Origin: an uncultured Nitrososphaeraceae archaeon
GTDB taxonomy: Archaea > Thermoproteota > Nitrososphaeria > Nitrososphaerales > Nitrososphaeraceae
DNA length: 64,000 bases
Assembly (NCBI GenBank): GCA_963765895.1
Contig: CAVXZB010000084.1
Coordinates: 96,001-160,000, forward strand
Direction of reading: 5' to 3'
Positions 4,659-64,000 of the stretch are shown here, piece by piece. The translations under genes were made by a program, and so were the position numbers. The notes beneath the pieces are model-generated. The model saw only the letters and a list, made by a program, of their open reading frames with translations. It did no database searches and was not told where the DNA came from. The number at the start of each line of letters is the position of its first letter. The stretch's first letter is position 1.

Positions 4659-5975
4659 ATGAGCGCAAGCAAAAAACCACATATGAATTTGGTGGTTACA
4701 GGTCACGTTGATAATGGTAAATCGACTTGTGTAGGTCATTTAATGGTCGATATGGGAGTTATTGACCAGAGGACTATAGAAGCATTTGCTAAGGAATCTG
4801 AGGCAACAGGTAAGGGTGATACTTTCAAATATGCTTGGGTTTTGGATAGTATCAAAGATGAAAGGGATAGAGGTATCACGATCGACTTGGCCTTTCAAAA
4901 ATTTGAAACTCCAAAGTTCTTTTACACATTAATTGACGCACCAGGGCATAGAGACTTTATAAAGAACATGATCACCGGCGCTTCCGAGGCTGATGCATCG
5001 GTCTTGGTAATTTCAGTTAAGCCAGGTGAGACAGAAGGCAGCAACTGAACCTGGCGGTCAAGCTAGAGAGCATGCATTTTTGGCAAGAACCCTTGGAGTC
5101 AGCCAAATGATAGTGGCCTTGAATAAAATGGATGATTCAGGATATTCAGAGGCGAGATATAAAGAAGTTAAGGAAATAGCCGAAAAAATGTTGAAACTTG
5201 TCGGGTATAACACTAGCAAAGTTCAATTCATTCCAGTTTCTGGATGGAAAGGTGACAATCTAATTAAGAAATCTGAAAATATGCCATGGTACAAGGGACC
5301 TACTCTTCTGGAAGCTCTAGATATGTTTGAAGCGCCTGAAAAACCGATTGGAAAGCCTTTAAGGATCCCGGTACAAGATGTCTATTCCATAACTGGTGTT
5401 GGTACAGGTACCAGTTGGAAGAGTTGAGACCGGCATAGTTAAGACTAATGACAAGGTAGTCGTAATGCCATCTGGTGTCAATGGTGAAGTCAAGAGTATC
5501 GAGACTCATCATACGCAGATGGATTCTGCTGAAGCTGGAGACAATATAGGTTTTAACCTCAGGGGTGTTGACAAAAAATCAATAAAGCGTGGAGACATGA
5601 TTGGCGCTGCTAGCAGTCCGCCGACAGTGGTCAAAGAATTCGAGGCACAGATTATAGTAATTCATCATCCTACCGCAATGGCCCCCGGATATACGCCAGG
5701 TACTACACGCACACACTGCCCAAGTTGCTGCTACACTTTCAGAATTTGTCGCCAAAATTGACTCAAAGACGGGAGGAGTAGTAGAAGAAAAGCCTAAATT
5801 TTTGAAAACCGGTGACGCTGCAGTTGTAAGGATTAAGCCAGTCAGACCGTTGGCTATTGAAACATTCAAGGAATTTCCAGAAATTGGAAGATTTGCCTTG
5901 AGGGATATGGGAACAACCATAGCAGCTGGCGTGGTTAAGTCAGTTACAGAGAAATATGATCCCTCTAAAAAGTAA
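4659..5975 (+). CDS. tuf: translation elongation factor EF-1alpha; three +1 insertions (about 5037, 5407, 5699)
   Basis: [30 protein letters not shown], and C-terminal [15 protein letters not shown]; removing one G at each site restores one frame ending at TAA 5973-5975. Confidence 0.97.
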
Positions 5976-5989
5976 AGTGAATTTTTGGA

Positions 5990-6301
5990 ATGCCGCAAGA
6001 AGCTAGAATAAAACTTACCAGTACAAACCTTTCTACACTTGAAGGTGTATGCTCAGAAATAAAGGGTCTTGGCGAAAAAAGTGGTATAAAGCTGAAAGGA
6101 CCACACCCTCTTCCCACTAAGAAAATGAGAGTAGTAACTAGAAAATCTCCCTGTGGACAAGGAACAAATACATATGATAAATACGAATTGCGTATACATA
6201 GAAGAGTAATTGACTTGGGTGCCGACGATAGAGCTATCAGGCAGCTTATGAGATTAAAAATACCTGACGACGTTTACATTGAGGTTTCTTTAACTCAATA
6301 G
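5990..6301 (+). CDS. rpsJ: 30S ribosomal protein S10
   Basis: KGPHPLPTK, TRKSPCGQG and YELRIHRRVID motifs; directly follows EF-1alpha. Confidence 0.97.
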   Translation: MPQEARIKLTSTNLSTLEGVCSEIKGLGEKSGIKLKGPHPLPTKKMRVVTRKSPCGQGTNTYDKYELRIHRRVIDLGADDRAIRQLMRLKIPDDVYIEVSLTQ

Positions 6302-6545
6302 TTGATGCCGTTCCGTTCTACCTTGAGCTGATTGTCCAGCCACAAGTGGAATGCGCTATTCATTTTCTAATAATATTTTATGTTTGACTTGTGAAAATGC
6401 TTCACTAGCTCATCGAGCAAGATCATACTATATTCTTAATTTGTATGAGAACTAGCCAAATTTTAGTAGTTTAGTTATGGTTATGGTTATGGTTATAATG
6501 AATAGTAATGAATCAAATTCGCTTTTGCAAAAACAATTTTGAAAT

Positions 6546-6881
6546 CTATAGCTGTGGTCCAATATTTATAAGAGATTGCATTGTATGAAATAACGGATTA
6601 ATCTCAGAAACAGGGCCGTATAATTCCAATTTCGTTAGGCATTGAATAGAAATTCTTGCCATTCTAAAGATAAACCCTCTTACCGAATACTCTAATCCCT
6701 GGATCCTATCTAAGCCTTCACTTACAATATCATCAGATTTAATAATGTATCCACGCTGTGCATACAGAATCAACCTCTTATCAGTTATCACGACTCTATA
6801 TTTTTTAATTCCGTATCTGACTAAGGAAGTGCTATAAAACTTCACATTTTCTGAGGGCAGTAGAAAGTCTTGTAGTGGCAT
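6546..6881 (-). CDS. PH-domain-like small protein
   Basis: 111 aa ORF with LLPSE near the N-terminus and VVITDKRLI, a pattern typical of prokaryotic PH domains. Confidence 0.55.
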   Translation of the reverse strand: MPLQDFLLPSENVKFYSTSLVRYGIKKYRVVITDKRLILYAQRGYIIKSDDIVSEGLDRIQGLEYSVRGFIFRMARISIQCLTKLELYGPVSEINPLFHTMQSLINIGPQL

Positions 6882-6970
6882 TACTTTATTAGTTAAAGAG
6901 GAGTCTTGATGATATTTAGGAAAACAGGTTGCAGCAATTTGCTGATGTGATTTAGATTTATTGATATGTC

Positions 6971-8026
6971 GGCTCTGTAGAAACCATGTTCTGAATACCG
7001 TTAGAGCTTTCTAGACGTATGATCCAATATGGATGTTGAAAGAATCAAGATATGTTAGGCTGGCTAATACTATGTACCGTGTCTTGAGAAATTCAAGGAT
7101 ACCATTGTTTCTTCACAGAAAGAGCAATCATGCATTTATGATATGGTAGCATTTAGTATTACTTACAATAAGACAGTACGAAGGTAAGAGTTATAGGATG
7201 TTTGTCGAGTGGTTAGTCGAGGCACATTACCTTAGATCGTACCTACGATTGTCACGTATTCCTCATTTTACAACATTGCAAAAGTTTACAGACAGACAGA
7301 ATTAGCAATTCACTGCTTGAGAAGATAATTTCGTCATTCATTGTAATTAGCTGGTACGAAGCATATCTTTGTAGGAATAGATTCAACAGGATTTAAAATA
7401 ACTCAATTCACTGCTTGAGAAGATAATTTCGTCATTCATTGTAATTAGTGGTACCAAGCATATCTTTGTAGGAATAGATTCAACAGGATTTAAAATAACT
7501 CATGCTTCACAGTATTATGATGAACGAATAGAAGCAAGAAGAAAATATGCGAAATTATCTATTAGAGCCGATGTATTACAACAGATTATCTGCAACATAA
7601 GGATAAGACGAGCTCCTACAAGACATGATAATGTAGATTTCAAGCCAATCATAACAAGGATAGTCAAATATCCCTTCCACTATCCGTAGTTACAGCTGAT
7701 AAGGGATATGATAATGAAGATAATCATCAGTTGGTAAGAGAAACCTTGCATGCATTCAGTGTTATTCCAGCTCGATATGAACATGTACCGATATGGAGAA
7801 CACATGGCAGATATAGAAAGCAGATGAAACGTGGATATAACGAACTATTGTACAATCAACGAAACAAGGATGAGACCATAATGTCTGTCATAAAACGACT
7901 ATTTGGAGAATATATTTCTTCAAGGCTAGTAAAAACACAGAACAGGGAACTATCATTCAGATGCATAGCCTATAACATGCACAGGCTAACGAATATTGTC
8001 ATTTTTGTGATGATTTCTACATGGCC
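6971..8026 (+). mobile_element. IS5-family (IS903-like) insertion sequence, copy 1, defective
   Basis: Ends GGCTCTGTAGAAA / TTTCTACATGGCC (imperfect inverted repeat, resembling IS903 ends); 8-bp target duplication GATATGTC at 6963-6970 and 8027-8034; near-identical inverted copy at 41674-42629. Confidence 0.92.
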
Positions 8027-8051
8027 GATATGTCATATCACTTTAATATAG
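7033..8051 (+). pseudogene. DDE transposase pseudogene
   Basis: GIDSTG, ADKGYD and YNQRNKDETIMSVIKR motifs; TAG at 7147-7149, ACAG duplication at 7288-7299, internal ~97-bp duplication. Confidence 0.9.
7306..7500 (+). repeat. tandem duplication of ~97 bp inside IS copy 1
   Basis: CAATTCACTGCTTGAGAAG...AAAATAACT occurs at 7306-7403 and 7404-7500; single in IS copy 2. Confidence 0.9.
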
Positions 8052-8153
8052 GCATCAATCAGGGATTTTGTTTTGGCAAAGTCAGTTCTCTGATTTACGG
8101 AAATTACACAATTATATTCCGGACAGACGTTTTACAGTATTGACGATCGAGAC

Positions 8154-8957
8154 ATGCCCTCCGCAGATATGACAATGTACGAACACATCAATGAATTGCG
8201 TGTTAGAATATTTCATATAGCAATTTCTATAGCAATTATTACAATATTCTGCATGAGCTTTGGATTAAAACCTCTAAATGATTCATTCTTATATTATCCA
8301 GTGCCCGACCCAATTAATAACATTGCAGTTCAATTGACGTCTTATATGAGAGATACGCTACTTCCACCCGAAGTAAAGTTAATACAGACCTCGCCAGGTC
8401 AGGCATTTTTTGCTCAAATATACGTGGGTATGTTATTAGGAGTGCTTGGATCGATGCCGATCATTATTAAAGAAATATTTGGTTTCATCTCTCCGGCCTT
8501 TGAAAGAAAATTTAACAAGAGCCTAATCGTCAACATCATCCTGCCGACTATCGCCCTATTTATTTCAGGAATAATACTCTCCTATATCCTTGTAATTCCA
8601 TTCACGCTTGGCTTTTTGTATAAATACGGTCAGGCTATTGGAGTTGAGACATTCTTTAATGTTAACGATTTTATTTCATTTGTTTTACAATTCTTTCTTG
8701 GGTTTGGTATCGCATTTGAACTTCCAATGATAATGTACGCCTTTACACTTACTGGTATGATTGATGTCAATTTCTGGAAAAAGAACTTTCGCTATGCAAT
8801 TATAATCTTGGTTGTTTTTGGTGCCATAATAACTCCTGATGGGAGTGGAGTCACAATGTGGTTTATCGCTGGTCCTATGATTGCGTTGTATCTACTTGGA
8901 ATTGTATTTATTCAAAGAAGAGAGAAGAATAGAATGAGAATGGAAAATATAACTTGA
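8154..8957 (+). CDS. tatC: twin-arginine translocase subunit TatC
   Basis: EHINELRVR, FELP and AIITPD motifs; about six hydrophobic segments. Confidence 0.93.
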   Translation: MPSADMTMYEHINELRVRIFHIAISIAIITIFCMSFGLKPLNDSFLYYPVPDPINNIAVQLTSYMRDTLLPPEVKLIQTSPGQAFFAQIYVGMLLGVLGSMPIIIKEIFGFISPAFERKFNKSLIVNIILPTIALFISGIILSYILVIPFTLGFLYKYGQAIGVETFFNVNDFISFVLQFFLGFGIAFELPMIMYAFTLTGMIDVNFWKKNFRYAIIILVVFGAIITPDGSGVTMWFIAGPMIALYLLGIVFIQRREKNRMRMENIT

Positions 8958-9205
8958 ACTCTTGATGAAGGAATAATAGCGTGATAATGAATAGCTACGA
9001 GAGTGTAATTATATTCCCCATTCATGGGGGCTTGACTACACCAAGGCATAAACGTAGCGTGTTGTAGGGAACTCAATGTAGAGCTTATAATTGGGATGTC
9101 TCAGATAACAGGCGAACCTAACCTAAATTCAGTGGTTGGTTGGTCCTGCATTTCCTAGGTTAAGATGAACATTTAATAGGATTCACAATTGACCATATAT
9201 TATCG

Positions 9206-11920
9206 TTGGCACATCAAGAGGAACATTTTACTGTCAGAGAAAAAAAATTTGGTGATTTATCTGAGCTGCCAGAAAATACCCCAGCCCTTCTTTTATCGGC
9301 AATATATTCAGGAGAAGAGCAAAAGGTGTATCTAAAATTTTATAGTCCTAAAGATGAATCCATATACATTTGGCGAGATCGGACGAATCATAAACCGTAC
9401 TGTTATACTAAATTACAATATGCGGCCAGAGCTCAAGAAGTCGCCAAATTGGAAAGAAAATATACCATCGAAAATGTGAAAAGACGTGATCTGATATCGG
9501 ATAAATTGATCGATATCCTGAAAATTAGTGCACCCGATCCGCTATCTATTGGTGGGACAGAAAATAGTTTCCGTGAAAAGGTAAAAGCATGGGAAGCAGA
9601 TATTAAATATCACGAAAATTATCTTTATGATACAGGTTTAATTCCTGGTACATTTTATCTTCGAATAGGTAACGAAATCAAGACCCATGAAATGGACATT
9701 TCAGACAAAGTACGAGAAGAGCTGGAAGACCTATTGTGGAATAAACTGAAAGTCTCATCGGAGAAAGCAGAGGATATTCGTTACCAGAAGCAAATTACAA
9801 GATGGGCAAATCTACTTAACCAACCTATTCCTGAGATTAAGCGAGTCTCTGTTGACATAGAGGTTGAATCTGAAGAAGGAAGAATGCCTACTCCTAGGGA
9901 TCATGATCGTCGTATTACTGCTATTGGATTTGTGGCTAGTGATGGATACCGGAGAGTGTTGTTGTTAAATCAGAATAAACAACATGAAAGCAGCCAAGCA
10001 TTGATACCCGAAGCAGAGATCTACTATACAGAAAAGGAACTGCTAGAGGAGGCTTTTAAGATAATAGCTTCATATCCGATCGTCATTACCTACAATGGAG
10101 ATGATTTTGACTTACCATATTTATATGCTCGATCTCAGGATCCAAGAATTGATCCTAATAGATCACAAATTATACCAAAGGACAAAGTACCTATCATAAT
10201 AAAGCGCGAGACTTTCATTAAACGTGGAATTCAGGCAGAACCTGTACAATTAAAATATGGTATACATATCGATCTATTTCGAACATTTCAAAATCGATCC
10301 GTTCAGATTTATGCCTTTAGTAACAAATATTCTGAGCATACTCTAAATGCAATCTCCGAAGCGCTGCTCGACGATACCAAACTAGAATTTGACGGTGATA
10401 TTTCAGAGCTACCCATCGAAACACTTGCCATGTATTGCTTAAAGGATGCAGACCTAACATATAGGTTGACTAGTTTTAATGATAGTTTATTGATGAAGTT
10501 AATAGTAGTTATTGCGAGAATAGGACGATTATCAATAGATGATATTGCGCGCTTTGGCGTTAATCAATGGATTAGAGGAATGCTATACTATGAGCATCGA
10601 CTTAATGGGTTCCTCATACCCAGAAGAGATGAACTGCAGGAAAAGGGTACCGCGTCGACTACTGCAATCATCAAAGAAAAAAAATATCGTGGGGGCTTAG
10701 TGGTTGAGCCCAAGCTAGGGATTCATTTTGGAGTAGTGGTAGTCGATTTCGCTAGCTTGTATCCTAGTATTATCAAAGTCCACAATCTTTCATACGAAAC
10801 AGTTAATTGCGTGCATCAATCTTGCAAGGAAGATCCTAAACAAAAAGTACCTGGAACGACACATTGGATATGCAAAGTGAATAGGGGTCTGACTTCACTA
10901 CTAATAGGTTCGTTACGGGATCTAAGAGTTAATTATTATAAACATCTGTCAAAGAATAAATCAATTACACCAGAAGAACGCCAATTGTACAATGTAGTAA
11001 GTCAAGCTATTAAGGTTATTCTTAACGCCAGTTACGGCGTTATGGGCGCAGAGATTTTCCCTCTTTACTGTTTACCAGTAGCAGATGCTACTGCCGCAAT
11101 CGGAAGAGTAACTACGACTTCTACCATTGAGAGATGCAAGGAAATAGGTATCGAGGTGATCTATGGTGATACAGACTCCCTTTTTTTAAAGAATCCCTCC
11201 TCGAATAAGGTTGAAGAAATCTCAGTATGGGCGAGAACTAGATTAGGAGTTGATTTAGAGATTGACAAACAATATCGCTACGTTGTATTCAGTGAGCTCA
11301 AAAAGAACTATCTCGGTGTACTTACAGACGGAACTGTCGACGTAAAGGGGCTTACTGGAAAAAAATCTCATACCCCCCCATTCATCCGTAACGCGTTTTA
11401 TGAAATTTTGAATATTTTGAGTAAAGTCGATTCGGAAAAGGATTTTGAATCTGCTAGGGAAAAAATCAAAAATATAATCCAAGAAAATGCAAAGGGATTA
11501 GAGCTAAAGAAGATCCCTCTAAATGATCTGAGTTTCAATGTGATGGTAAATAAGTCGCCAGAAAAGTATGGTAAGAAAATGTCGAACAATCAAAGCACAA
11601 AAAATATTGCGTTGCATGGCAAGGAGAAAGAAGTAGAAACCTTCAAAGGTCTTCCGCAGCATATCAAGGCCGCGAAGTTATTAACTGACAATGGAAGGTT
11701 AATCAAAGCCGGCGATATCATATCCTATGTGAAAACAAAGACAGGAGATGGGGTAAAGCCAGTAGAACTCGCAGTTGCTGAAGATATCGACATCGAGAAA
11801 TACCTTGCTACCATGGAAGCTACCTTTGACCAATTACTATCATCTCTCAATTTCAATTTTAAGACGCTTTTGGGGAAGCCGCGGCAACGTAGTTTGGATG
11901 AACTATTCTGGAATGTATGA
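9206..11920 (+). CDS. polB: family B DNA polymerase (PolB1 type)
   Basis: Exonuclease DIEV and YNGDDFD; polymerase DFASLYPSII, KVILNASYG, YGDTDS and KKNY; no intein seen. Confidence 0.96.
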   Translation: MAHQEEHFTVREKKFGDLSELPENTPALLLSAIYSGEEQKVYLKFYSPKDESIYIWRDRTNHKPYCYTKLQYAARAQEVAKLERKYTIENVKRRDLISDKLIDILKISAPDPLSIGGTENSFREKVKAWEADIKYHENYLYDTGLIPGTFYLRIGNEIKTHEMDISDKVREELEDLLWNKLKVSSEKAEDIRYQKQITRWANLLNQPIPEIKRVSVDIEVESEEGRMPTPRDHDRRITAIGFVASDGYRRVLLLNQNKQHESSQALIPEAEIYYTEKELLEEAFKIIASYPIVITYNGDDFDLPYLYARSQDPRIDPNRSQIIPKDKVPIIIKRETFIKRGIQAEPVQLKYGIHIDLFRTFQNRSVQIYAFSNKYSEHTLNAISEALLDDTKLEFDGDISELPIETLAMYCLKDADLTYRLTSFNDSLLMKLIVVIARIGRLSIDDIARFGVNQWIRGMLYYEHRLNGFLIPRRDELQEKGTASTTAIIKEKKYRGGLVVEPKLGIHFGVVVVDFASLYPSIIKVHNLSYETVNCVHQSCKEDPKQKVPGTTHWICKVNRGLTSLLIGSLRDLRVNYYKHLSKNKSITPEERQLYNVVSQAIKVILNASYGVMGAEIFPLYCLPVADATAAIGRVTTTSTIERCKEIGIEVIYGDTDSLFLKNPSSNKVEEISVWARTRLGVDLEIDKQYRYVVFSELKKNYLGVLTDGTVDVKGLTGKKSHTPPFIRNAFYEILNILSKVDSEKDFESAREKIKNIIQENAKGLELKKIPLNDLSFNVMVNKSPEKYGKKMSNNQSTKNIALHGKEKEVETFKGLPQHIKAAKLLTDNGRLIKAGDIISYVKTKTGDGVKPVELAVAEDIDIEKYLATMEATFDQLLSSLNFNFKTLLGKPRQRSLDELFWNV

Positions 11921-12169
11921 AGATCTCATATGACATATAATGCATTTGGTTTTTCTTGTACCTCGTCTGTATTGGTATAAGGTTGTCTGCTTAAAAGGCA
12001 TGGTTGTTATTGTTTAATTCAATCCAACTGCTCAATATGAATATTTGCAATTGCCCTTGATTTAACAATATTAAATACAAATGTGGAAATACATAATTTA
12101 GGATCTAATCTATTTTTTATCAATTAATTATAAATTCGATAGTTGGACCATTAGCTATAAATAAATCAT

Positions 12170-12814
12170 GTGCCTAAATACAGTGTGGAACAGAACATTC
12201 CTAATACGATGACATCTTTGCTATCTTCTCGTGTAGGACTTCTCATGAAGCCGGATGTTGTCATACTTGAAAGCGACGCTTCAGTTGACGAGGCTACAAA
12301 GATGATGAGAGAGAAAAATAGCAGAAGCGTACTTGTATCTAAACGCGGGGAAGTAATTGGGATCGTAAGCAAGACTGATATTCTCTTCAAAGTGATTTCC
12401 CAAAATGGGAATCCATCGAAAGTTAAGTTGAGAGAGATAATGACATGTCCTGTTCTTGCTTTGGGCCCAGGTTCAACAATTAAGGAAGCCTTGGCTGTTA
12501 TGGACAAGCATGGTATTAGGCAGGTGATGGTTCATGCGTATGCTGCAGTTTTAGGAGTTGTCACCAGAGAAGATATTTACCAGAGTATGGAAACACTATC
12601 CATGGCTTCTGAAGATACAGCCATCTCCGGAACGCCGGCGTGCATTATTAATACCAAGGCTATAGCATATATGAAAGATTTAAGTAAATTCAGTATAGTA
12701 TGTCCATACTGCCAATCCCCCTTTGATACCAAGGAAGGCCTTTCGAAACATATCGACAGACTACACGGCGAATCTGGAATTTTGGAAGGGGATGTCAGAC
12801 ATCTATTTGAGTGA
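12170..12814 (+). CDS. CBS-pair protein with C-terminal C2H2 zinc finger
   Basis: Two CBS repeats (GIVSKTDI, GVVTREDI) and CPYC-x12-HIDRLH. Confidence 0.85.
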   Translation: MPKYSVEQNIPNTMTSLLSSRVGLLMKPDVVILESDASVDEATKMMREKNSRSVLVSKRGEVIGIVSKTDILFKVISQNGNPSKVKLREIMTCPVLALGPGSTIKEALAVMDKHGIRQVMVHAYAAVLGVVTREDIYQSMETLSMASEDTAISGTPACIINTKAIAYMKDLSKFSIVCPYCQSPFDTKEGLSKHIDRLHGESGILEGDVRHLFE

Positions 12815-12980
12815 ATATTGTAAATAACTGAATCCAACTTTGTAATGTTCGATATCTTCGGTCTGAAGCCACAACTAATGCTGCATTGTTGTCCCCAATT
12901 GAATTTAAATATGGGACTCGCAGATATTACTAATGACAAAAGCGTTTTAATGTTGAAGGTCTAACCTGGTACTCTGAGAA

Positions 12981-13943
12981 TTGACTATTGATGGACTAGA
13001 CCAGATGTTTATTATACCCGAGAAAACAAAAGCTGGATACGGATTTGCGGATATACCCCAATCAGTTACTCTTGATGAAGCTCAGGTGATATTTTATGGT
13101 GTTCCATTAGACCTGACGACCAGTTTTGGAAAAGGTACTGCAAGAGGTCCAGAAGCGATACGAATCACATCTGCTCGTCAAACTGAAACATTTGTTTTTG
13201 AAGAAAAGATCGATATTTATGAGAGGGCGAGAATTTACGACCTAGGAGATATCAAGATACCCAAGACCAAGGGAGGAAATCGGTATAACCACATCAAGAC
13301 TGTCTTTAAGTATCTTGATGACAAGATTTCAAAAGTCTCTAGGGCCGCTCTTAGCACGAATAAAATTCCTGTGCTGCTTGGAGGAGAGCATACTGTCTCG
13401 TATTTTCAGATAAAGGAAGTGTCCAAGGAAAATCCCATTCTTATCCATTTTGATGCCCACAGAGATATGAAAGAAGAATATGATGATCTTAGATTGTGTC
13501 ATACTACACCTTTTTACCATCTTATAAAAGAAGGACACATTTCTGGCAAAAATATTATTCAGATCGGTATTCGCCAGGCTGATAGTCACGAAAATAAAAC
13601 GGCCGAGGCATTTGGAGTGACTACCTTCGATGCTTGGAGGGTTCACAATAGAATAGATGAGCTTCTCAATCATTTGCAGAGGGTTACTAGAAATAGGAAT
13701 ATCTACATATCTTTTGATATCGATGTCTACGATCTACCTTACGTGCCATGCACAGGCACACCAGAACCTTTTGGGTTAGACCCTTTTCAGATTCTTAGAA
13801 TAATTAAGAGCATAAGTCACTCGTCCACACTCGTGGGAGTGGATTTAGTAGAAGTGGGCATAAAAAATAATGATTATCGAGAAGGAGTCCTTGCAACACA
13901 AACTCTGTTTAGAATTCTCGCACATAAATATAAAACAAAATGA
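12981..13943 (+). CDS. speB: agmatinase / ureohydrolase family
   Basis: GPEAIR, GGEHT, DAHRD, SFDIDVYD and GTPEPFG motifs. Confidence 0.8.
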   Translation: MTIDGLDQMFIIPEKTKAGYGFADIPQSVTLDEAQVIFYGVPLDLTTSFGKGTARGPEAIRITSARQTETFVFEEKIDIYERARIYDLGDIKIPKTKGGNRYNHIKTVFKYLDDKISKVSRAALSTNKIPVLLGGEHTVSYFQIKEVSKENPILIHFDAHRDMKEEYDDLRLCHTTPFYHLIKEGHISGKNIIQIGIRQADSHENKTAEAFGVTTFDAWRVHNRIDELLNHLQRVTRNRNIYISFDIDVYDLPYVPCTGTPEPFGLDPFQILRIIKSISHSSTLVGVDLVEVGIKNNDYREGVLATQTLFRILAHKYKTK

Positions 13944-14332
13944 TTTGGTCCGACTAGTCGAAACGAGCAACCAGATCAACTATGGTAGTAATGATGTCTG
14001 TTAGCCTTTACAAGATTTCGAGACCACTAAAATTCATTTGGGCGTCGAAAACCCATTGTTAAGGTTACACTAAACACAAAAAATTTTGTGTGTAGCACAA
14101 TTTCGTGGTTGTTTACAACCGTATCTGGTCCATGAAAGCCTGTGGAATCACTTGCTTACTTGGAGCGTTGCGGTATGGATTCTCATTGTACATATCATTA
14201 ATCAACATCAAAGCTTTTCATTTAAAATATATTTGCCAATAATAGCGGCTTCTTAAGGCAAATCTTATTAGTGTTGTAAATTCAAATGAATGACTAATTT
14301 TATAAGCTGCCAATTTTTAATAATCATGAATA

Positions 14333-14638
14333 ATGCAAGACTTTTTTGAAATAGATCGTTTAATAGAAGACTTGGCGAAGATTTACGCTACTGCATGTGC
14401 TTCTACATGGTTTAAAGTATCTAGAAATTTGAAACCTACGAGAGAAGAATTCCGTAGCAAAGCAGTCGAGTTTATGGGTCATTTTCAATATTCCCTATCA
14501 AAATTTCCCGAGAATGAGGATGGAGAAAAGTTTAGAGAGTACGCTAACAACAGACTCCAGACAGAAACGAAGAAGGTTGTCGAAGGAAACAATAAAGAGG
14601 TTGAGAAAAGATACAAGTATTTTGTTGGTTGGTCCTAA
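14333..14638 (+). CDS. hypothetical protein
   Basis: 101 aa ORF, TATA-like TTTATAA about 30 nt upstream, protein-like composition. Confidence 0.7.
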   Translation: MQDFFEIDRLIEDLAKIYATACASTWFKVSRNLKPTREEFRSKAVEFMGHFQYSLSKFPENEDGEKFREYANNRLQTETKKVVEGNNKEVEKRYKYFVGWS

Positions 14639-15208
14639 AATAGGGATGTATTATGCTAATCCAGATCATACTTGAATACTGACCGTGACTTCTTACTGAC
14701 AACCTTGCTATCCGATACTTCTGATTCGAATCTATATATTTTTTAACTATGATAGATCCTGCTCTCTGTTAATAGAACTCGAGTTGAATCACTACTATCT
14801 GAACCTATTTGATATTTTGGAGCTGTAAGACATATGAGTAGGTGTTGAAAAATCTAGTCCAAATCTTTTAAAGATAGTTCTAACTAGTAACTCAGTCTTA
14901 CACTGGAAATTAGGACAAAATTTTCAATAAAAACCTCTCTTCGATAATTATCCCGCAATTAATATAATGAAGTTGCTATCTAATGCATCATTAGTTATTC
15001 GATAATCAAAAATTAAAATTGAATTGATTTACTATGTGGACCATTTACTCCAAATGCTGACATTACTGTTAACTAAAAATTAAGATTATCAAACATCGTG
15101 GATATTGATAAAATGACATGAAATTCTTGGAGGCCACACATCGATATATAGTGAATGATAGTCGTAAAAGTTTTAAGAAGCACACCCAAACAACAATAGT
15201 ATTAGGAA

Positions 15209-16315
15209 ATGAAAATTACATTATCTGCAATCAAAGCCGACATTGGAGCAATCGGAGGTCATACTTGTCCCAGTTCAGAATTGATTCAAAAAGTAAAGGA
15301 TCATGTTTTATCCAGATCAAAAGGGATGCTAATTGACCACTATATTGGCTTCAGTGGCGACGATATACACATTATCATGACCCACACATTGGGGATCGAC
15401 AATAAACAGATTCATCAACTCGCGTGGGATGCCTTCAGTGAGGGAACTAAGATTGCCAAAGAACAAGGATTGTATGGTGCAGGTCAAGATCTTTTGAAGG
15501 ACGCTTTTTCAGGAAATGTAAGAGGCATGGGGCCTGGCGTCGCAGAGATTGAGATGGAAGAACGTCCAAGTGAGGTATTTTGCATATTTGCAGCTGATAA
15601 GACCGAACCGGGGGCGTTCAACTTTCCTCTTTGGCGAATGTTTGTCGATGCCAGGAGTAACACCGGACTTCTAATTAATGAACAATTAGCATCAGGGGTA
15701 ACCTTTCGAATCATGGACGTTATTGCAGGCAAGATCGCAGATCTTAAGATGTGGGAAGACAAACCAGAACTTGAGGCAGCACTGATGTATCCAGGAAGGT
15801 ATGTAGTTCATTCGGTTGTATCTTCAGACGGAGATGTTATTGTATCAGCATCCACGGATAGACTTCACAATATTGCTGGTACATATGTAGGAAAGGACGA
15901 TCCGATCGCGATAGTGAGAACGCAAAAGAACTTTCCTGCAACAGAAGAAGCTGGAAGTGCTTTTAACAATCCACATTTTGTAGCAGGTAACACTCGTGGG
16001 AGCCATCATATGCCTCTCATGCCCGTAAGGCTAAATTCAGCTGCGAGTTTGAACTATGCCATACCAATAGTCTCTTGTCTTGTGTTTAGTATGCATAATG
16101 GTAAGTTGACAGGTCCACATGACGGATTTGGTACTGCGGACTGGGATCTTCAAAGAATGTGGGCCTCTGAGAGGGCAATGATCATTAGAAACCAAGGTTT
16201 TATTCATCCTGCGACTTTGGTGCCGGAGGAGCTAGAATATAATAAAGGCTATGAAGCAAGGATGGCCAAATTGAATAAAAAATTTAAAGATATTAGTACA
16301 ACTACGACCTCCTAA
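15209..16315 (+). CDS. fbp: bifunctional fructose-1,6-bisphosphate aldolase/phosphatase
   Basis: IKADIGAIGGH, GDD, GLYGAGQDLL, ADKTEPGAFN and YVGKDDP motifs. Confidence 0.96.
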   Translation: MKITLSAIKADIGAIGGHTCPSSELIQKVKDHVLSRSKGMLIDHYIGFSGDDIHIIMTHTLGIDNKQIHQLAWDAFSEGTKIAKEQGLYGAGQDLLKDAFSGNVRGMGPGVAEIEMEERPSEVFCIFAADKTEPGAFNFPLWRMFVDARSNTGLLINEQLASGVTFRIMDVIAGKIADLKMWEDKPELEAALMYPGRYVVHSVVSSDGDVIVSASTDRLHNIAGTYVGKDDPIAIVRTQKNFPATEEAGSAFNNPHFVAGNTRGSHHMPLMPVRLNSAASLNYAIPIVSCLVFSMHNGKLTGPHDGFGTADWDLQRMWASERAMIIRNQGFIHPATLVPEELEYNKGYEARMAKLNKKFKDISTTTTS

Positions 16316-16457
16316 AAATAGAATGAAAATAAAGCAGCTGAGCGACTAGGTAGATTATAATTGCCAATTGACATTATAACTAAAATTTCTAAATATACAC
16401 ATGTCATTTCTATAGTTAGGATAATAAATGTAAGAAAAAGAATAGCTATTTAATCAT

Positions 16458-17126
16458 TTGAAGAATCCACTAATTTTAAATTTTAAGAACTACCTAGAGA
16501 TTTCTGGAGAAAAGACCTTAGAACTTGCAAAGTCAGCCGAGAAAGTCAGTAATGACCTAGGAGTAGAGATAGTTGTAGCTCCGCCGCAGCCTTCTCTGTG
16601 GACTGTAGCAAATATTATAGATATTCCTGTAATATGTCAGCACGTAGATGATGCCAATTCTGGATCGAGTACTGGCTACTTTGTACCAGAAATTGCCAAG
16701 TCGTATGGAGGTATAGGGTCTTTGATAAATCATAGTGAGCACAGGATAGACATGAAGAGTATATTGAAGTTGGTCCAGACGTTAAAAAAACTTAATATGA
16801 TATCCATAGTTTGTGCGAGGACACCTGCCGAGGTTGTTGAGATAGCGAAGTTCAGGCCTGATTTCGTTGCGATCGAACCGCCGGAGCTAATAGGTAGTGG
16901 TAAGGCTATATCGAAGGAGGCGCCACAAATAATTTCAAGTTCAGTAAAGGCAGTAACTGACAATTCTGATTCTACAGGGATGGTTTGTGGAGCAGGAATC
17001 GTGGATAAATCAGATGTTTCCAGGGCTCTACAGCTAGGTGCAAATGGAATTCTCGTGGCAAGCGGCATAATTAAATATAGGTCGTGGCAAGAAAAGATTT
17101 CAGAACTAGCTTCGGCCTTTATCTAG
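16458..17126 (+). CDS. tpiA: triosephosphate isomerase (archaeal type)
   Basis: NFKNY, NHSEHR, AIEPPELIG and CGAGI motifs. Confidence 0.96.
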   Translation: MKNPLILNFKNYLEISGEKTLELAKSAEKVSNDLGVEIVVAPPQPSLWTVANIIDIPVICQHVDDANSGSSTGYFVPEIAKSYGGIGSLINHSEHRIDMKSILKLVQTLKKLNMISIVCARTPAEVVEIAKFRPDFVAIEPPELIGSGKAISKEAPQIISSSVKAVTDNSDSTGMVCGAGIVDKSDVSRALQLGANGILVASGIIKYRSWQEKISELASAFI

Positions 17127-17465
17127 CTAACATAGTAGATATATTGTATAATTACTAGATTTATTTTGATATTATAGAGAGGATTGGACTTGTAATAACT
17201 TAATTACAAATCTAAATTGGCATTGCACTTAGTCGAGGGGTTAAGTCGTCCAAATATTGAAGAATAATCTTGCTCACTATCCTGTGATCTGTTGTCAAAA
17301 AATCGGTAAGAAAGATAAGGAAAACAATCCGTTCTGGATCGCAAGCTGTTAGTTTTTATTGCAAATGCCAAATTTGAATACTTTATACTCCTTATCTCCT
17401 ATACACTAATTCGTATACTGAGCTATAAGGTAGTCATGGTCCTGTAACTAGCCTACCAGCTTAAT

Positions 17466-17903
17466 TTATTGCGTCACCACTACAGGTTCAGACATTGCTG
17501 CGTTTTCTTTTCCGATGTCAGACAATGTCTTTTTGATGTGGTCCCAGAAATGTTTCTCAAATGCATGTGCTCTATAACCTGATACTGCAGCTGCAGGAAT
17601 TGCAGCTATTCCGGCAGTCAGAACACCTGCTATAACTGTCGGAACGATTATATCTTTACCCCATGCACCTGTTCGTAGAATCAGATCATAATTACCCTCG
17701 TTGCCGCTTATCATAACCTCTACATCACGTACATTTCCGATTATGACACTGCCTCTAGTACCTTTATGCGCTTTTAGATCCCAAAAGTTTTCTTCCTTTT
17801 CCTCGTGGATTATATCAAGTTTTTTGTCCTGTAAATATTTCTTGATTTGACTGTACAGTTGTGAAACATCTACATTTTGTAGAGTAACATGTTCTTGTCT
17901 CAT
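17466..17903 (-). CDS. hypothetical protein with one hydrophobic segment
   Basis: Open frame; ATG at 17903 is the likely start; hydrophobic IIVPTVIAGVLTAGIAAIPAAAV. Confidence 0.65.
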   Translation of the reverse strand: MRQEHVTLQNVDVSQLYSQIKKYLQDKKLDIIHEEKEENFWDLKAHKGTRGSVIIGNVRDVEVMISGNEGNYDLILRTGAWGKDIIVPTVIAGVLTAGIAAIPAAAVSGYRAHAFEKHFWDHIKKTLSDIGKENAAMSEPVVVTQ

Positions 17904-18604
17904 TATTACTTTGTATAGGATAATCTCTATTATACTTTTACAAAGCAATATAAACAGTACAACTATCCAAAAAAAGTCTTACTCTAATCAGAATTTCTTT
18001 CTGGTCCCAGTATATCGTGTATTTGATTGTTAGCTGAAATTCAGTATATAGCTTCAATTCGCGCATTTTGCGTATCAATCTATTCCAGTATTCCCAATGA
18101 CAAAATTATCTTCCTCAATAAGTTATGCTGTCACGACATAACCACTTAGACTGCGGATCCTGTCCAGCCCGGAATTTCCAACTGAAGTAACGGGATAAGA
18201 CGTACCTATTTTCAGACCGTTCTAACTTCAAGCCACGGTACAGCCTAATGAAGCTTAAGATATATGCAATGACATCTGCCGGTTCAACCCTGCAAAAAAA
18301 TCCTTAATTAGGAGCAGCATACCAATTTATACGGCCTGTTCAAATGTATTTATCACTTGTACCCGTATCTTAACATCTATCTTTGTGGGTGTCAGTTAGT
18401 TCACCTTGAGTAATATCGCAAAATTGGGTATATAGGTATACAATACTAATTCGGGTCCCGATTATATTGCATGTAATGCTTGTGGGATGCACTGAGCTAT
18501 AATCTGGCCATCCTATCCTGCTGTATTGCATGATGACTGAGATTTAAATAGTTGTTTCCGATAAAGGCTACCTTTAACAATATTCTAATACATAATCCCC
18601 GAAT

Positions 18605-19786
18605 TTGCATTTTAAATATATTAATAAGTTCAATCGTAAATTTTATTTTATGTCATTAAATCATTTTATCACTCTGCTAAGACCCGTAATCATAATCCTG
18701 CCAATATTGTCAATATCCATCGTGTTAAATAATAGTGAGCTTAAAAGTGAACCGGCGCTAGCAACTAGTCTGAATAACTCTTATGTTGATCATTTCAATG
18801 TCCCAGTGGCACTTGAAAAAAGCTCCGTATTTTATACAATTAGTGAAGCAGCAAGCGTGCAAGTAAAAACTAACCATAATACAGGAGCAAATGTTAAAAC
18901 TACTCAGGTTAATAATGACAGCATTGCTGACATAAATCACACAACTAAACTAGCGATATTAACTTTTGGCGATATTCATAAAAACCAATTCACAGTTGTC
19001 AAGCCAATCTTGGACAAGTATGGCTTTAAGGGTAGTTTCTTTGTAACCTGCGGCTTTGTTAAAGACAATAATGCCAAAAACATTGGGATGGATAACGGCA
19101 AAGAGAATGGAACGCCGCGGATGAGCTGGAGCGACATAGAGGCGCTAAAACAAGATGGCCAAGATATAGAATCGAAAGGAATGACACACCGAGATCTTAA
19201 CCAATTGGGATCTGAGGATCTAGAATTCGAAATTGGAGGCTCGAAACACTGTTTAGAAAGTCACAACATTAGCCCTAATATTTTTGCAGTTGTACATGGT
19301 GATGCATGGAACAATTCTAGTGTTATAAATATTATCAGCAAATATTATGGGTTTGCAGATAATGGCTTTGCTGATCTAATATTTTTACGCTGTGATGGAT
19401 ACGTTACGCACAAACAAACCGATTGCAGCACCTACACTAATAATGGGACATTAAATTATGCAAACAGATATTCCATAAGAGAGAGGAGTCAGAATACATT
19501 GGACCGAACTTATCTCCACAACGATCAGGTAATATTTGAGAAATTTAAAGAACAGGTAAATTCTCAAACTGGATATAATAATATGAAGGCCTTTATTGAC
19601 GCCATACCTGTAATTGCGTACCATAGTATAGATGACTCAAAAGGGCCTTCAAGTACTAATGCTGAATTGTTTGCGTCAGAGATGAAATATTTACACGATA
19701 ATGGAATTAAGGTAATACCTATGTCTGATCTAGGCTATAATGAAAGCGCCGATTATATTTACGTTAAAAACTGGTCAAGTCGATAA
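18605..19786 (+). CDS. polysaccharide deacetylase family protein, secreted or membrane anchored
   Basis: N-terminal hydrophobic segment; LTFGD, KYGFKGSFFV, MSW, ESKGMTH, and C-terminal PVIAYH / MKYLHDNG; canonical TFDD and SHxxxH ligands are altered. Confidence 0.8.
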   Translation: MHFKYINKFNRKFYFMSLNHFITLLRPVIIILPILSISIVLNNSELKSEPALATSLNNSYVDHFNVPVALEKSSVFYTISEAASVQVKTNHNTGANVKTTQVNNDSIADINHTTKLAILTFGDIHKNQFTVVKPILDKYGFKGSFFVTCGFVKDNNAKNIGMDNGKENGTPRMSWSDIEALKQDGQDIESKGMTHRDLNQLGSEDLEFEIGGSKHCLESHNISPNIFAVVHGDAWNNSSVINIISKYYGFADNGFADLIFLRCDGYVTHKQTDCSTYTNNGTLNYANRYSIRERSQNTLDRTYLHNDQVIFEKFKEQVNSQTGYNNMKAFIDAIPVIAYHSIDDSKGPSSTNAELFASEMKYLHDNGIKVIPMSDLGYNESADYIYVKNWSSR

Positions 19787-20515
19787 TGTAGTCGATTAAT
19801 TGGGTTGAGTTTTTAGTGTATGACAAAAAATTGAGATGTATATTATGATACTAAACTGAGGAGACATTCTGGTCATACCAAAAATAGAAAACAAACTCTA
19901 GCTTTCAATTTTTTTATTCTAAATGTGGTCTTTAAATCCCAAATAACTCCAAATATCAATAAAACCATTGGAAGAAGGACTGGAGCGAACCCGAAAAAAG
20001 ATTAACTCGCAAGAAAAACCGAATAGTACCTACGAATCGTATAATACAGTTTACGTATTGATCCTGACCAGATAGCAAAAAAATAGGCAAGATTAGTTAA
20101 TACAGTATTGAATAGACATAACTAAGTGGTATTACTAGAGTCTTATATGAAATTGACAGAATCTTACATGGCTCCTTTACTTAATAAGTTCAGAAACATT
20201 TCTATAAAATAGAAGAAATCATATCGATCCCTTACTGATATTTTATTTGTCTCGTCACCGTTATAAAAAATAATTGTGGAATAAACTAACGTATTTCATT
20301 GGCCATTTTCCTATCGCCTGCTCTTGGCCCGAGCTTGGTATGATCCGATAAATTGTTGTGTCAAAGGTTAGAACGTTTAGATATTGGATATTAGACATAA
20401 CTTCTGTCTCTGATTGCTTCACTAAAAATACTATTGATTTGAGATCTGCTGGACTGTTTGCCACTTTACCTTTAAGAGGATCGTTAGTCTTTTTCAAATC
20501 TTTATATTAACTGCT

Positions 20516-21964: not shown

Positions 21965-22058
21965 GAATCAACACCTTATCTTATCCATAATTTAGATTCT
22001 TAAAGCGTTATATCATATAAGCATTGATAGGATGGTAAGCGCAGTCGATATGTACAGA

Positions 22059-23097: not shown

Positions 23098-23479
23098 TGA
23101 ACATTGTTACGTTATGTATATATATAAGTATTAAGGCGACTATATACCCTAATTTTTTACACAGTGGACAGTTAAATATACTCGACTCTATCAAACTCTC
23201 ATTTATAAAACCAAGATCACATTTTTTGGCTTACAGTAGAATTCTCTGTCACAGTACCTATCTTAGGCCTATTTAATAAAGATTCAGTCCAGATAACGTA
23301 TTTATTCTTTAGACCTAATAAAGTCAGAAATATGAATAGATAGGGAATCATTTTGCATCCAGCTTTTTAATGTATGACAAAGCTTGCTGAATTAATTACT
23401 ACTTCCTTGAAGTCGGTGAATCTAATGATGAATATATCACAACAAGAAGGCGCTGTTTTTTAGTTATATCAAGAACATG

Positions 23480-23846
23480 TTATTTCTTTTCTCCTTTAGT
23501 CTTGTCTTCAACGATATTATATTTTGAGAGCTCGCTTGTACGCAAAAAAGACTACTAATGCTATTACTAGGAAGTTAATGATATTCGAAATAAGATCACC
23601 GTATCTGAAAACTGTTGTTGTTCCGGCCAGGTTTGGAACTTTTATTGTTAGCGCTGCCAAGCTACCAGCTGGAAGAAACAGGCCTATAAGCGGATCAATT
23701 ATGTCCTTAACAAAAGCATTTACCAGTGCAGATGCTGCCTGTCCAATTACGAAAGCAATTGCAAGTCCGATTACTCCGAAAGTCTTAAGGAAGTCAAAGA
23801 ATTCCTGAGTAAAAGTACTTTTCTTCTTTTCTGAGCTGGCCGTCAT
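23480..23846 (-). CDS. mscL: large-conductance mechanosensitive channel; +1 insertion at about 23533
   Basis: EFFDFLKTFGVIGLAIAFVIG...DIIDPLIG...YGDLISNIINF; removing one base gives AYKQLSKYNIVEDKTKGEKK with stop at 23480-23482. Confidence 0.9.
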
Positions 23847-42629: not shown

Positions 42630-42699
42630 GACTAATTAGAATCCCTTACATACTATATTTCTATAAGTGAAGTTTTCATGCGTGAAACCAACATAGGGA

Positions 42700-44103: not shown

Positions 44104-47060
<2,957 letters not shown>

Positions 47061-56679: not shown

Positions 56680-56682
56680 TAT

Positions 56683-61840: not shown

Positions 61841-61869
61841 GGATAAGGTAGACAACTATCTAGTATTTC

Positions 61870-62085
61870 ATGAAGCCTAGTCCTACGCGCTCTAAGGTCA
61901 CTGGTATATCAATCCTAGGGACATCTATCATCGGCTTTATCATCTATCTATATTTGATCCTGGCTACTCAGTGGGATATCTTGCTTCTCAAAATTACCAT
62001 TATCGCTGCAGTTGGCGCGGTTGTATCTGTTGTAGCGTGGATAGGGTATACGATGACTACGACTCCCATTGCTGATAAAGAATAG
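61870..62085 (+). CDS. small membrane protein (2 TM)
   Basis: Two hydrophobic segments and WIGYTMTTTP end. Confidence 0.7.
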   Translation: MKPSPTRSKVTGISILGTSIIGFIIYLYLILATQWDILLLKITIIAAVGAVVSVVAWIGYTMTTTPIADKE

Positions 62086-62088
62086 GTA

Positions 62089-62934
62089 TTATTTATGAAC
62101 GTAAATATCTGTCACAACTTGATACACTCTTGGTCCTACCTCTCTAACGACTCTACTAAATTGAACCTCGGTATCATAATTTGAAAAGGCAGATTTGACA
62201 TCAAGCAAGCTTTGTTCTAGGGCGTATTTTTTTCCTAAGGCTTTGACATGTGCAAAATAATGGATAATACCCCCGCGATCCTTAAGGGCCTCAACTGCAC
62301 AATCTACATACTCATGTGCTTTCTCTGGTAGTGGCATCAATACTCTATCCGACTGTAATCGGATTTCTTTAGAAATAATTTCTCTTGCATCGCCCAAGAT
62401 GGATACTACTCTTGACTCTACTCCGTTTAATTCAGAGTTATGATGACTTAGCTCTATAGCAGCAGGATTTATATCAATACTATAAACCTTGCAGCGACTG
62501 TGCATTCTAGCCATTATAATAGAAAATGTGCCTACGCCTGCGAACATGTTAGTTACTACCTCATTATCGGAAACAAGATTAGCTACTCTTAATCTCTCTG
62601 TAGACAACCTTGGTGAAAAGTATGTGTTGACAAGATCCACCTTAAACTTGCATCCATGTTCCTTATACTCTACAAGAGTATCATTTTCTCCTGCAATATG
62701 TTCCAGGCCACGTAGCCGATAATCTCCTTTAACAGAAGAAACTTGCGCGAATACAGATTTCACTGATTTAATTTCGTCTAATATAATTTTTCCAATCAAA
62801 TTCTTTTTTGTGGCGAGAGCTTCGGGTATTTTAATAATCACGACACTTCCAATTATATCAAAAGAAGAATACATGGACGCTGCTTCTTCCGCTTCTAGAG
62901 TTTGACTTAGGATGGTCTTTAACATTCGAGCCAT
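62089..62934 (-). CDS. Trm5/TYW2 (Met-10+) family tRNA-modifying SAM transferase
   Basis: FDIIG, YKEHGC, YFSPRLSTER, NMFAGVG, DINP and DRVLMPLP motifs. Confidence 0.88.
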   Translation of the reverse strand: MARMLKTILSQTLEAEEAASMYSSFDIIGSVVIIKIPEALATKKNLIGKIILDEIKSVKSVFAQVSSVKGDYRLRGLEHIAGENDTLVEYKEHGCKFKVDLVNTYFSPRLSTERLRVANLVSDNEVVTNMFAGVGTFSIIMARMHSRCKVYSIDINPAAIELSHHNSELNGVESRVVSILGDAREIISKEIRLQSDRVLMPLPEKAHEYVDCAVEALKDRGGIIHYFAHVKALGKKYALEQSLLDVKSAFSNYDTEVQFSRVVREVGPRVYQVVTDIYVHK

Positions 62935-62945
62935 CGAGATAAAAT

Positions 62946-64000
62946 CTACCTACTCTTTATATAATAATAATTGCCTGATTCCTTTTGAGATCTATCTAAT
63001 CTACTATCATCTTTATTGACTCTTGGCCGACCCGTGCTTTCATCCCTTCGATAAGTTATAGACAACGCCTCGAGAAATCTGTTCATTCCTGTTTCCTTGG
63101 ATAGTGGCTGGCTAGCTTTGCCGCTGCGTCCTGGTACTCCTTCGAATATAATTAATGAATCTGCCATTAAATCAATTAGTTGAACATCATGATCTATTAT
63201 TATTGCAGACTTTTCATTTGCTCGGACATAGCGTTGAATGAATTTTGCAAGTGCAATCCTATCTTCTGCATCTAAGAATGCCGAAGGTTCGTCAAGAGCA
63301 TAGATATCAGCATTTCTTATGAGGCAAGGCAGCAACTGCTACTTTTTGTAATTCTCCTCCGCTGAGATTCTTTACTGATTTTTCATACAGCTTCTTTAGT
63401 CCTATGGGAGCCAGGATTTGTTCCTCGATAAGGGATCCCTCGATATCGTTCTCGTAAGCGATTGAAAGAATTGATTTAACTGACCCATTATACTCTTGGT
63501 TCAGATACTGCGGTTTATAGGAGATTTTTGCGCCAATTTGTAGATTGCCAGAATCGGGTTTATCAACTCCTGCTAACATTTTCATAAAAGTAGTTTTACC
63601 CAACGCGTTAGCGCCCACAATTCCAACTACTTCACCTTTTCTGACTTGCCCATTAGCGATCTTCAAACTAAAAGAAGGAAAGGTTTTGGATAGCATTGAA
63701 TATCGTGCAACCGGAAGATCAAGTACCATATCGTCCGTTGTTGTAGTCGTTTCGAATCGGAATGCTTTCTGTCTAAACCTTACGTTTTCGCTGGGAAGAA
63801 AGCCATCTAGGAAGTTATTAATGCCTAGTTTTGTGCTCTGGAGTACAGATGTTATGCCGTAAGCGCCTGGTTCTCCATAAAGGATATGTATATAATCGGA
63901 AAGGTAGTCCAGCAACGTAATATCGTGTTCTACGACCATAACACTCTTGCCTGAATTTGCAAGCTCTCGTATGACCCTAGCCACCGAAAGTCGCTGATAA
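62946..64000 (-). CDS. rli: ribosome recycling ATPase ABCE1/RLI, 5' part outside window; +1 insertion at about 63328
   Basis: VEHD, GANALGKTT, SYKPQY, LSGGELQ, DEPSAFLD and GRPRVNK; removing one base gives VAACLIRNAD. Confidence 0.95.

Follow-up and report, generated by a model that had tools for sequence, protein, structure and literature searches.

Motif-bound one-letter insertions at GCWGC and GTAC in the assembly of a soil Nitrososphaeraceae archaeon, a probable footprint of DNA modification

Introduction

Modified bases can mislead nanopore sequencing, and the described cases of modification-mediated errors (Dam, Dcm and novel motifs; PMC10687267, PMC11610603), as far as the available parts of those reports go, concern a short word specific to the organism, affect only part of its occurrences and are lost in short-read data. 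The errors dealt with here are alike in these respects and are found in a stretch of 64,000 nucleotides (the window; positions 96001-160000 of contig C84 of the genome studied, G000), whose source is a soil Nitrososphaeraceae archaeon. They differ from the known cases in that they are frame-breaking one-letter insertions, in that the words concerned are GCWGC and GTAC, in that they occur in an archaeal metagenome-assembled genome, and in that we infer the platform as well as the modification.

The methylation of the order Nitrososphaerales has been described in a survey of REBASE genomes (PMC10609329), the available part of which reports N4-methylcytosine (m4C) at GTAC (group HG10) and at AGCT (HG19), set by orphan methylases that persist in 8/8 Nitrososphaerales, N6-methyladenine (m6A) at GATC (HG3) in 27/29 Nitrososphaerota, and in Nitrososphaera m4C at CGCG (HG12) together with one m4C enzyme of unknown site, HG21. 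For GCWGC there are two precedents, M.ApeKI, which makes 5-methylcytosine (m5C) (PMC8557920), and M.AbaBS3I, which makes m4C (PMC6329791), at least by the available portions of these sources; in a review (PMC11033074) the only such entry is a predicted m5C enzyme for GCWGC from one Nitrosopumilales genome, and the literature searched yielded no report of GCWGC modification in Nitrososphaerales.

A preliminary description of the window, made from its letters alone, had listed eight single extra letters at GCWGC, had read them as assembly errors due to a modification of that word (ApeKI/TseI-type specificity), and had suspected AGCT as a further modified motif. Here we show that the letters are extra and motif-bound and that at 25451 the letter is missing from independent DNA; GTAC, which that description overlooked, is a second error word and adds 5 insertions in the window.

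Materials and methods

Positions are window coordinates unless a contig is named. The genome G000 has 4.91 Mb in 88 contigs, with 36.8% G+C, and is 88% complete. The minus strand of the window encodes an archaeal 16S-23S operon whose spacer has no tRNA; the first kilobase of the 23S region, used as query, is 93-97% identical among members of the family, and public metagenome runs from soil and rhizosphere hold part of the stretch in 20 of the 24 rows listed, from 8 studies.

Orthologous DNA of two references, G004 (same genus, 96-97% identical) and G003 (~90% identical), was aligned to the window and all indels were catalogued over 51,694 aligned bases. The effect on frames was assessed by deleting the extra letter in silico and comparing the length of the open frame before and after. 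Contigs of four runs (X1, X3, X7 and X15, from four studies) were aligned to window positions 8100-26540; the read comparison covers this interval, and what is said of contig indels refers to the indel rows listed.

The genome-wide test requires no reference. Frame breaks are pairs of open frames on the same strand in different frames, whose arms each measure 150 nt or more and score as coding in their codon usage; the break window is the short overlap of the two open frames (median 46 nt), and its controls are four flanking windows of equal length. Insertion-type breaks give +1 windows and deletion-type breaks +2 windows. In these we counted five error forms, GCgAGC, gGCAGC and GCAGaC (GCWGC plus one letter), and gGTAC and GTgAC (GTAC plus one letter). 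The same test was run on samples of 300-400 kb of other genomes.

Results

The eight letters of the preliminary description are indeed single extra letters at GCWGC (Table 1). Seven are one-letter insertions relative to G004, those of the EF-1alpha and cupredoxin genes also relative to G003, and the eighth, in the 23S rRNA, is extra against the Rfam model LSU_rRNA_archaea, where the inserted g falls in a hairpin loop of the consensus, and against 10/11 family 23S genes. Five of the eight read as the hexamer GCTCGC/GCGAGC, that is, GCWGC plus one letter, two as AAGGCAGCAACT and one as GCAGAC, and the remarks made in passing, that six of the eight do not lengthen a run, that four overlap AGCT and that the EF-1alpha and ABCE1 sites share a 12-mer, hold as well. 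At 25491/2 the identity of the extra letter is ambiguous because G004 has GCCGC there.

The catalogue contains 121 events, among them 57 one-letter insertions in the window and 28 one-letter deletions. Relative to G004, and after removal of the letter, 7/57 insertions touch GCWGC, where chance gives 0.95% per position (p 1.2e-6), and 5/57 touch GTAC (chance 1.8%, p 0.004); for the deletions the corresponding numbers are 0/28 and 1/28. Taking together the comparisons with G004, with G003, with Rfam and with the family 23S genes, the window holds 12 motif-linked places with 13 extra letters, and G004 is without the extra letter at all 11 places that it covers. Since 95 GCWGC in the window are intact, the penetrance there is ~8%, which bears out the earlier statement that it is partial; for GTAC it is ~3%.

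Table 1. Extra letters at GCWGC and GTAC in the window (hyphens set off the extra letter; open frames before and after its removal, in codons).
Position	Gene or feature	Extra letter and context	Evidence	Open frame
5037	EF-1alpha	G; GAA-G-GCAGC (gGCAGC form)	absent from 5/5 aligned relatives, G004 and G003	
5407	EF-1alpha	G; TACA-G-GTACC (gGTAC form)	absent from 5/5 relatives; insertion vs reference DNA	
5699	EF-1alpha	G; CCA-G-GTACT (gGTAC form)	absent from 5/5 relatives; insertion vs reference DNA	
22317	hexapeptide-repeat transferase gene	G; GT-G-AC inside GTAC	insertion vs G004; Pfam Hexapep	274 to 348
23533	mscL, minus strand	C; GCT-C-GC	insertion vs G004	
25451	SHOCT-domain gene	G; GC-G-AGC	insertion vs G004; absent in 4/4 runs; Pfam SHOCT	
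25491-25492	same SHOCT-domain gene	one letter; GCT-C-GC, or T	insertion vs G004	
28119	gene without Pfam match	G; GC-G-AGC	insertion vs G004	200 to 317
35275, 35279	GH5 cellulase-family gene	two letters around one GTAC; CA-G-GTAC-C-TG	insertions vs G004 and G003; Pfam Cellulase	522 to 580 (both removed)
44468	23S rRNA	plus strand GCT-C-GC, RNA strand GC-g-AGC	Rfam model and family 23S genes	
54266	cupredoxin gene	A; GCAG-A-C	insertion vs G004 and G003; Pfam Cupredoxin_1	200 to 322
63328	ABCE1	G; AA-G-GCAGC	insertion vs G004	230 to 350

Frames are reopened when the letters are taken out (Table 1). In EF-1alpha a frame of 442 codons opens once its three letters are removed, the ortholog of ABCE1 in G004 is intact (602 aa, with Fer4_RLI, Fer4 and two ABC_tran stretches), and the 23S site is extra, as said above; in mscL the Pfam match MscL covers only positions 1-93 of the 123 of the model. 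Under a strict test, in which a single event must restore a long frame, eight events do so, every one of them an insertion; GCWGC accounts for four and GTAC for two, the remaining two being those at 57721 and 1280.

Genome-wide, the forms of both words are enriched where frames break by insertion. GCGAGC is present in 56/657 of the +1 windows against 23/2627 controls (odds ratio, OR, 10.6, p 5e-23), GGCAGC in 61/657 against 43/2627 (p 1e-18) and GCAGAC in 27/657 against 35/2627 (p 2e-5); of the derivatives of GTAC, GGTAC is present in 93/657 against 137/2627 (p 1.5e-13) and GTGAC in 48/657 against 93/2627 (p 6e-5). Any of the five forms is found in 255/657 of the +1 windows, compared with 317/2627 of the controls (p 9e-51). 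The enrichment around indels that the preliminary description had anticipated for GCWGC is thereby found, and it is confined to insertions: in the +2 windows the five forms are not significantly enriched (59/475 against 200/1900), and only GGTACC is raised there (8 against 5), as expected if each strand adds a letter, as at 35275/35279. The excess attributable to the motifs amounts to 111 + 77 = 188 windows and the surplus of +1 over +2 windows to 659 - 477 = 182, so that the two words account for essentially the whole +1 surplus.

Other candidates were rejected or gave nothing. Homopolymers are not the main cause, runs of at least 5 being found in 146/657 of the +1 windows against 534/2627 controls (p 0.28), with a weak enrichment in the +2 windows. 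The suspicion that AGCT is itself a modified error motif did not survive, as its OR of 1.40 overall falls to 1.15 (p 0.31) when the windows with any of the five forms are set aside, and T, the base that would complete AGCT, is not enriched after GCGAGC. Among one-letter derivatives of the control words AGCT, GATC, CGCG, CTAG, GGCC, CCGG and TGCA no p falls below 0.006. A stronger signal comes from one derivative only of a further control word, GCGC, and this derivative, GCaGC, is itself GCWGC. Nor does any k-mer pass correction as a third motif in ~1300 tests after removal of the five-form windows, the best being ATGCGC (11 against 13, p 2.7e-4). The base before the error sites is A in 51-60%, compared with 22-27% in the controls, a preference that fits partial penetrance.

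As a negative control, the orthologous loci of G004 (63.5 kb) contain 3 +1 windows, only 1 of which has a form; the window has 8, and 7 with a form. As an internal control, the 16 copies of an insertion sequence (IS) that are at least 95% alike show 26 internal indel columns. Their consensus holds GTAC six times and GCWGC once; 7 of the columns fall there, and each of these 7/7 motif sites carries an indel in at least one copy (chance 4.5%, p 1e-4). As a whole, G000 has only 471 stop-to-stop frames of at least 1200 nt, a density of ~96 per Mb, whereas cleaner relatives reach 135-172 per Mb.

In independent DNA the letter at 25451 is omitted at full depth by the contigs of 4/4 runs, from 4 studies. 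The A-run at 25666 is likewise shorter by one A in 4/4 runs, and one G at 17237 is omitted in 3/4 (X3, X7 and X15), X1 retaining it; the letter at 22318 is left out by the X15 contig and kept by X3 and X7. The X1 contig over 23430-24576 has exactly one gap, whose position is not among the rows listed and which would be compatible with an extra letter at 23533, and the X3 contig over 25388-26022 has three gaps, of which 25451 and 25666 are among the rows listed, and would be compatible with an extra letter at 25491/2. The loose ends of X1 contain what we take to be a Nextera-type adapter, by which X1 would presumably be short-read data. The loss of the insertions, which the preliminary description proposed to look for in short reads, is found in independent DNA at 25451; the other GCWGC sites are not among the rows listed or lie outside the interval compared.

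Turning to other genomes, GCWGC forms are found in 15/53 +1 windows against 8/212 controls in G005, of the same genus, in 12/77 against 10/308 in G028, of another genus, and in 7/40 against 4/160 in G056, of a third; GTAC forms are enriched in G028 (15/77 against 27/308, p 0.013) and not in G005 or G056. In G046, a Nitrososphaeraceae with a 1.46-Mb contig, GTAC forms occur at the rate of G000 (5 observed, 5.7 expected) and GCWGC forms are absent (0 observed, 5.5 expected at that rate, P 0.004). In the unrelated archaeal genome G043, with 802 GCWGC in 400 kb, 1 GCWGC form is observed where 14 are expected, and 4 GTAC forms where 9.1 are expected. The GCWGC footprint is therefore organism-specific, which argues against a universal k-mer bias. 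The motif-bound frame breaks of G005, G028, G056 and G046 (loci L174-L213, L234-L253 and L278-L297) are of the same kinds as those of G000, and the gene calls of these four genomes are probably affected too.

The enzymes that might act on these words were sought by family. A C5-methyltransferase of the ApeKI type finds no counterpart, as PF00145 (DNA C5-methyltransferase) has 0 candidates in G000 (88% complete), in a search whose control was positive in 9/14 named genomes; PF02384 was not found in G000 either. The methylases present comprise at least five genes of the N4/N6 type, PF01555 having 8 matches in 6 genes, plus one Dam-family gene. Motif IV reads TSPPY in the genes of contigs C88, C19 and C43, DPPF in that of C24 and DPPY in that of C57; as a rule, SPPY indicates m4C and DPPY or DPPF m6A. 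PF01555 above the cut-off with S-P-P-Y in motif IV is what defines a beta-class N4-cytosine methyltransferase, and this combination was found; the best PDB relatives of the C88 protein are labelled 'DNA cytosine-N4 methyltransferase'. Names help little beyond this, since the NCBIfam matches of the methylases are far below the cut-offs, Dam excepted, and the homologs of the C19 enzyme have only generic names among the 120 matches listed; the nearest named relatives of one methylase gene of G000 are soil 'Nitrososphaeraceae archaeon' genomes, with up to 87% identity.

Members of the C19-type occur throughout the family (99% identity in G004, 93% in G005, 76% in G028 and 72% in G046), as do those of the family of C88 and C69, and these two types are the only PF01555 genes of G046, so that, judging by their distribution, they probably serve GTAC and AGCT. 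The C43-type, intact in G004 (355 aa, TSPPY), is 98% identical there, 83% in G005, 74% in G028 and 69% in G056, and it was not found in G046 or G043, which have only paralog stretches of 42-46%. It is present in 4/4 genomes with the GCWGC footprint (G000, G005, G028 and G056) and was not found in G046, the 1 genome that lacks this footprint, a co-occurrence among kin that are not independent. In the sample of the family it reaches at least 58% identity in 35/60 other genomes and 12/18 genera (the tally of genus g16 including the unpublished genome G050), and it was not found in g4 (0/5), g20 (0/5) or g5 (0/2), the hit in g2 being only a 42% paralog stretch. The C24-type (DPPF) shows the same pattern in the five test genomes, not being found in G046; its counterpart in G028 has only 51% identity and is contained in a frame of ~704 aa. 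For this reason we favour the C43-type SPPY methylase as the best candidate for GCWGC, with the C24-type as the alternative. In the genera g16 and g19, represented by fragmented assemblies, one of the two types occurs without the other.

Two of G000's own PF01555 genes, C43:16817-17831 and C69:39716-40374, are themselves frame-broken, and their break regions have none of the five forms. On the minus strand of C57 (13670-14155) a frame of 450 aa has a weak C-terminal match to PF01555 (DPPY) behind a long N-terminal extension.

Some further features of the window may be recorded. An extra T at 57721 (ATC-T-GCG), an insertion against G004 and G003, breaks a gene for an oligopeptide-type ABC ATPase, and its removal restores TCGCGA, which contains CGCG, the reported m4C site of Nitrososphaera; derivatives of CGCG are nonetheless not enriched genome-wide. 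An extra C at 1280 (TTG-C-AGG), again against G004 and G003 and not in a homopolymer, splits the gene of isoleucyl-tRNA synthetase, whose open frame passes from 815 to 1072 codons when it is removed. At 46354-46357 and at 46398 the 23S of the window is without letters that are present in 8-10/11 family 23S genes; the region may be a variable one, or the differences may be additional errors. Two copies of the IS, of ~960 bp, lie at 6970-8030 and 41674-42630; the genome has 16 copies with at least 95% identity and many more with ~82%. The copy at 6970-8027 is absent at the orthologous place in G004 and G003, where the alignments join 6970 to 8027. Finally, 26544-26831 is a perfect tandem repeat of the 15-nt unit AACGCAACTAATGCA (19.2 copies, 100% matches), within overlapping open frames at 26417-27247.

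Discussion

The errors described belong to a known class, that of modification-linked errors of long reads, and the breaks in the frames do not exist in the organism itself. The joint explanation that best covers the observations, to which we would give a probability of about 0.8, is that of an unpolished long-read assembly in which modified GTAC and GCWGC have led to motif-bound insertions of one letter. The steps could have been: (i) the assembly would be an unpolished long-read one, very probably nanopore and without short-read polishing, because of its 88 contigs for 4.9 Mb, its 471 frames of at least 1200 nt and the one surplus letter in the A run at 25666 and in the G run at 17237; (ii) the DNA would be modified at GTAC, for which m4C is reported in the order, and probably also at GCWGC; (iii) at a fraction of the sites, with preference for a preceding A, the basecaller or the consensus would misread the altered signal and add one letter, turning GCWGC into GCgAGC, gGCAGC or GCAGaC, and GTAC into gGTAC (GTACc on the other strand) or GTgAC; (iv) frames would thus be broken and the 23S loop lengthened only in the assembly, the genes being intact in the cell; (v) and finally, the mark at GCWGC would likely be N4-methylcytosine, made by an orphan PF01555 enzyme, in the first place the C43-type, alternatively the C24-type.

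That the insertions are errors of the assembly, as the preliminary description had held, follows from 25451, from the relatives without the letters and from the motif-specificity found genome-wide. As to its second claim, that DNA modification is their cause, the organism-specific footprint (absent from G046 and G043) and the fact that GTAC is a known m4C site speak for it, and the modification itself is what we infer. The footprint at GTAC matches the site of HG10 (PMC10609329), and G000 has several PF01555 genes with SPPY and one Dam-family gene. In the same survey, in the part available, GCWGC is not among the sites listed for the orphan methylases of Nitrososphaerales, and the word occurs 0 times. 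M.ApeKI (PMC8557920) shares the recognition word, but its family, PF00145, is the one not found in G000; M.AbaBS3I (PMC6329791), with the same word, is an m4C precedent that fits the N4/N6-type genes of G000, the two being likened by word and not by sequence, as far as the available text on these enzymes goes.

Several points weigh against this explanation. Firstly, 25451 is the sole GCWGC site whose extra letter is explicitly confirmed as absent in reads, among the rows listed. Secondly, the insertions at 1280 and 57721, whose removal restores frames, fit neither GCWGC nor GTAC. Thirdly, AGCT (m4C) and GATC (m6A), reported as persistent in the group by the available part of PMC10609329, leave no footprint in G000, and therefore the footprint is not a simple read-out of methylation; likewise, GTAC forms are not enriched in G005 and G056, so that the GTAC methylation expected there does not always yield errors. 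Lastly, the specificity rests mainly on the single genome G046, since kin are not independent, a common pipeline could lie behind the four genomes that have GCWGC forms, and G043 and G025, with few errors of any kind, are weak negative controls.

These last points lead to the alternative that survives best, which we still regard as unlikely, namely that the insertions are errors of the basecaller or polisher intrinsic to certain k-mers, with no modified base. The same forms do appear in four assemblies that possibly share chemistry and software, the error rate depends on the flanks, as the preceding A shows, and AGCT and GATC, expected to be methylated, are free of error. However, a bias of this kind should not spare GCWGC in G046, where GTAC fails at G000's rate, nor the many GCWGC of G043, and it leaves to coincidence that one of the two words is the m4C motif reported for the order. 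Far less probable is that the consensus mixes co-assembled strains and that the indels are strain heterogeneity or mis-joins; the runs hold several related strains, with many contigs only 95-99% alike, which, like the G at 17237 that only X1 retains, would agree with it, but strain mixing would not pick two short words, insertions only, or a preceding A, and it would not strike a loop of the 23S that is conserved in 10/11 relatives. The least credible of all is that the letters are genomic, the genes being pseudogenes or else being read through GCWGC and GTAC by RNA editing or programmed frameshifting, for, even if recoding sites too are sequence-specific and 7/8 of the sites first listed have no read evidence among the rows listed, at 25451 this reading is already contradicted by the DNA of 4/4 runs, G004, at 96-97% identity, shares none of the 11 covered places, one site is in an rRNA that is not translated, EF-1alpha, ABCE1 and isoleucyl-tRNA synthetase would all be broken, and near-identical IS copies differ at precisely these words; a programmed frameshift or recoding site was rejected on the first two of these grounds.

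With the explanation by modified GTAC and GCWGC in an unpolished assembly thus preferred, what is new with respect to the known class is the motif GTAC, the exact error forms, the fact that two words explain nearly all of the surplus, the rejection of AGCT and of a C5 enzyme, and a lead for GCWGC. One may go further, to a proposal that is possible and, taken as a whole, rather doubtful: a clade of soil Nitrososphaeraceae (at least the genera g1, g23 and g25) would carry an unreported modification of GCWGC, probably m4C, set by a clade-restricted orphan methylase of the C43-type (~355 aa, SPPY), which may be HG21, and the footprint would then serve as a read-out of the methylome.

In practical terms, ~190 or more detectable frame breaks of G000 are false. 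EF-1alpha, ABCE1, isoleucyl-tRNA synthetase and the 23S rRNA, all among the affected genes, are to be regarded as intact, and no claim on pseudogenes, recoding or completeness should be based on the assembly until it has been polished with short reads or in a modification-aware way. Three other public genomes of the family, from their samples, show the GCWGC footprint and a fifth, G046, the GTAC footprint only, and, the footprints being motif-bound and organism-specific, they point to the words that carry modifications. For GTAC this agrees with the m4C mark known in the order, and GCWGC would be a new mark for the soil ammonia-oxidising archaea, with two candidate enzymes.

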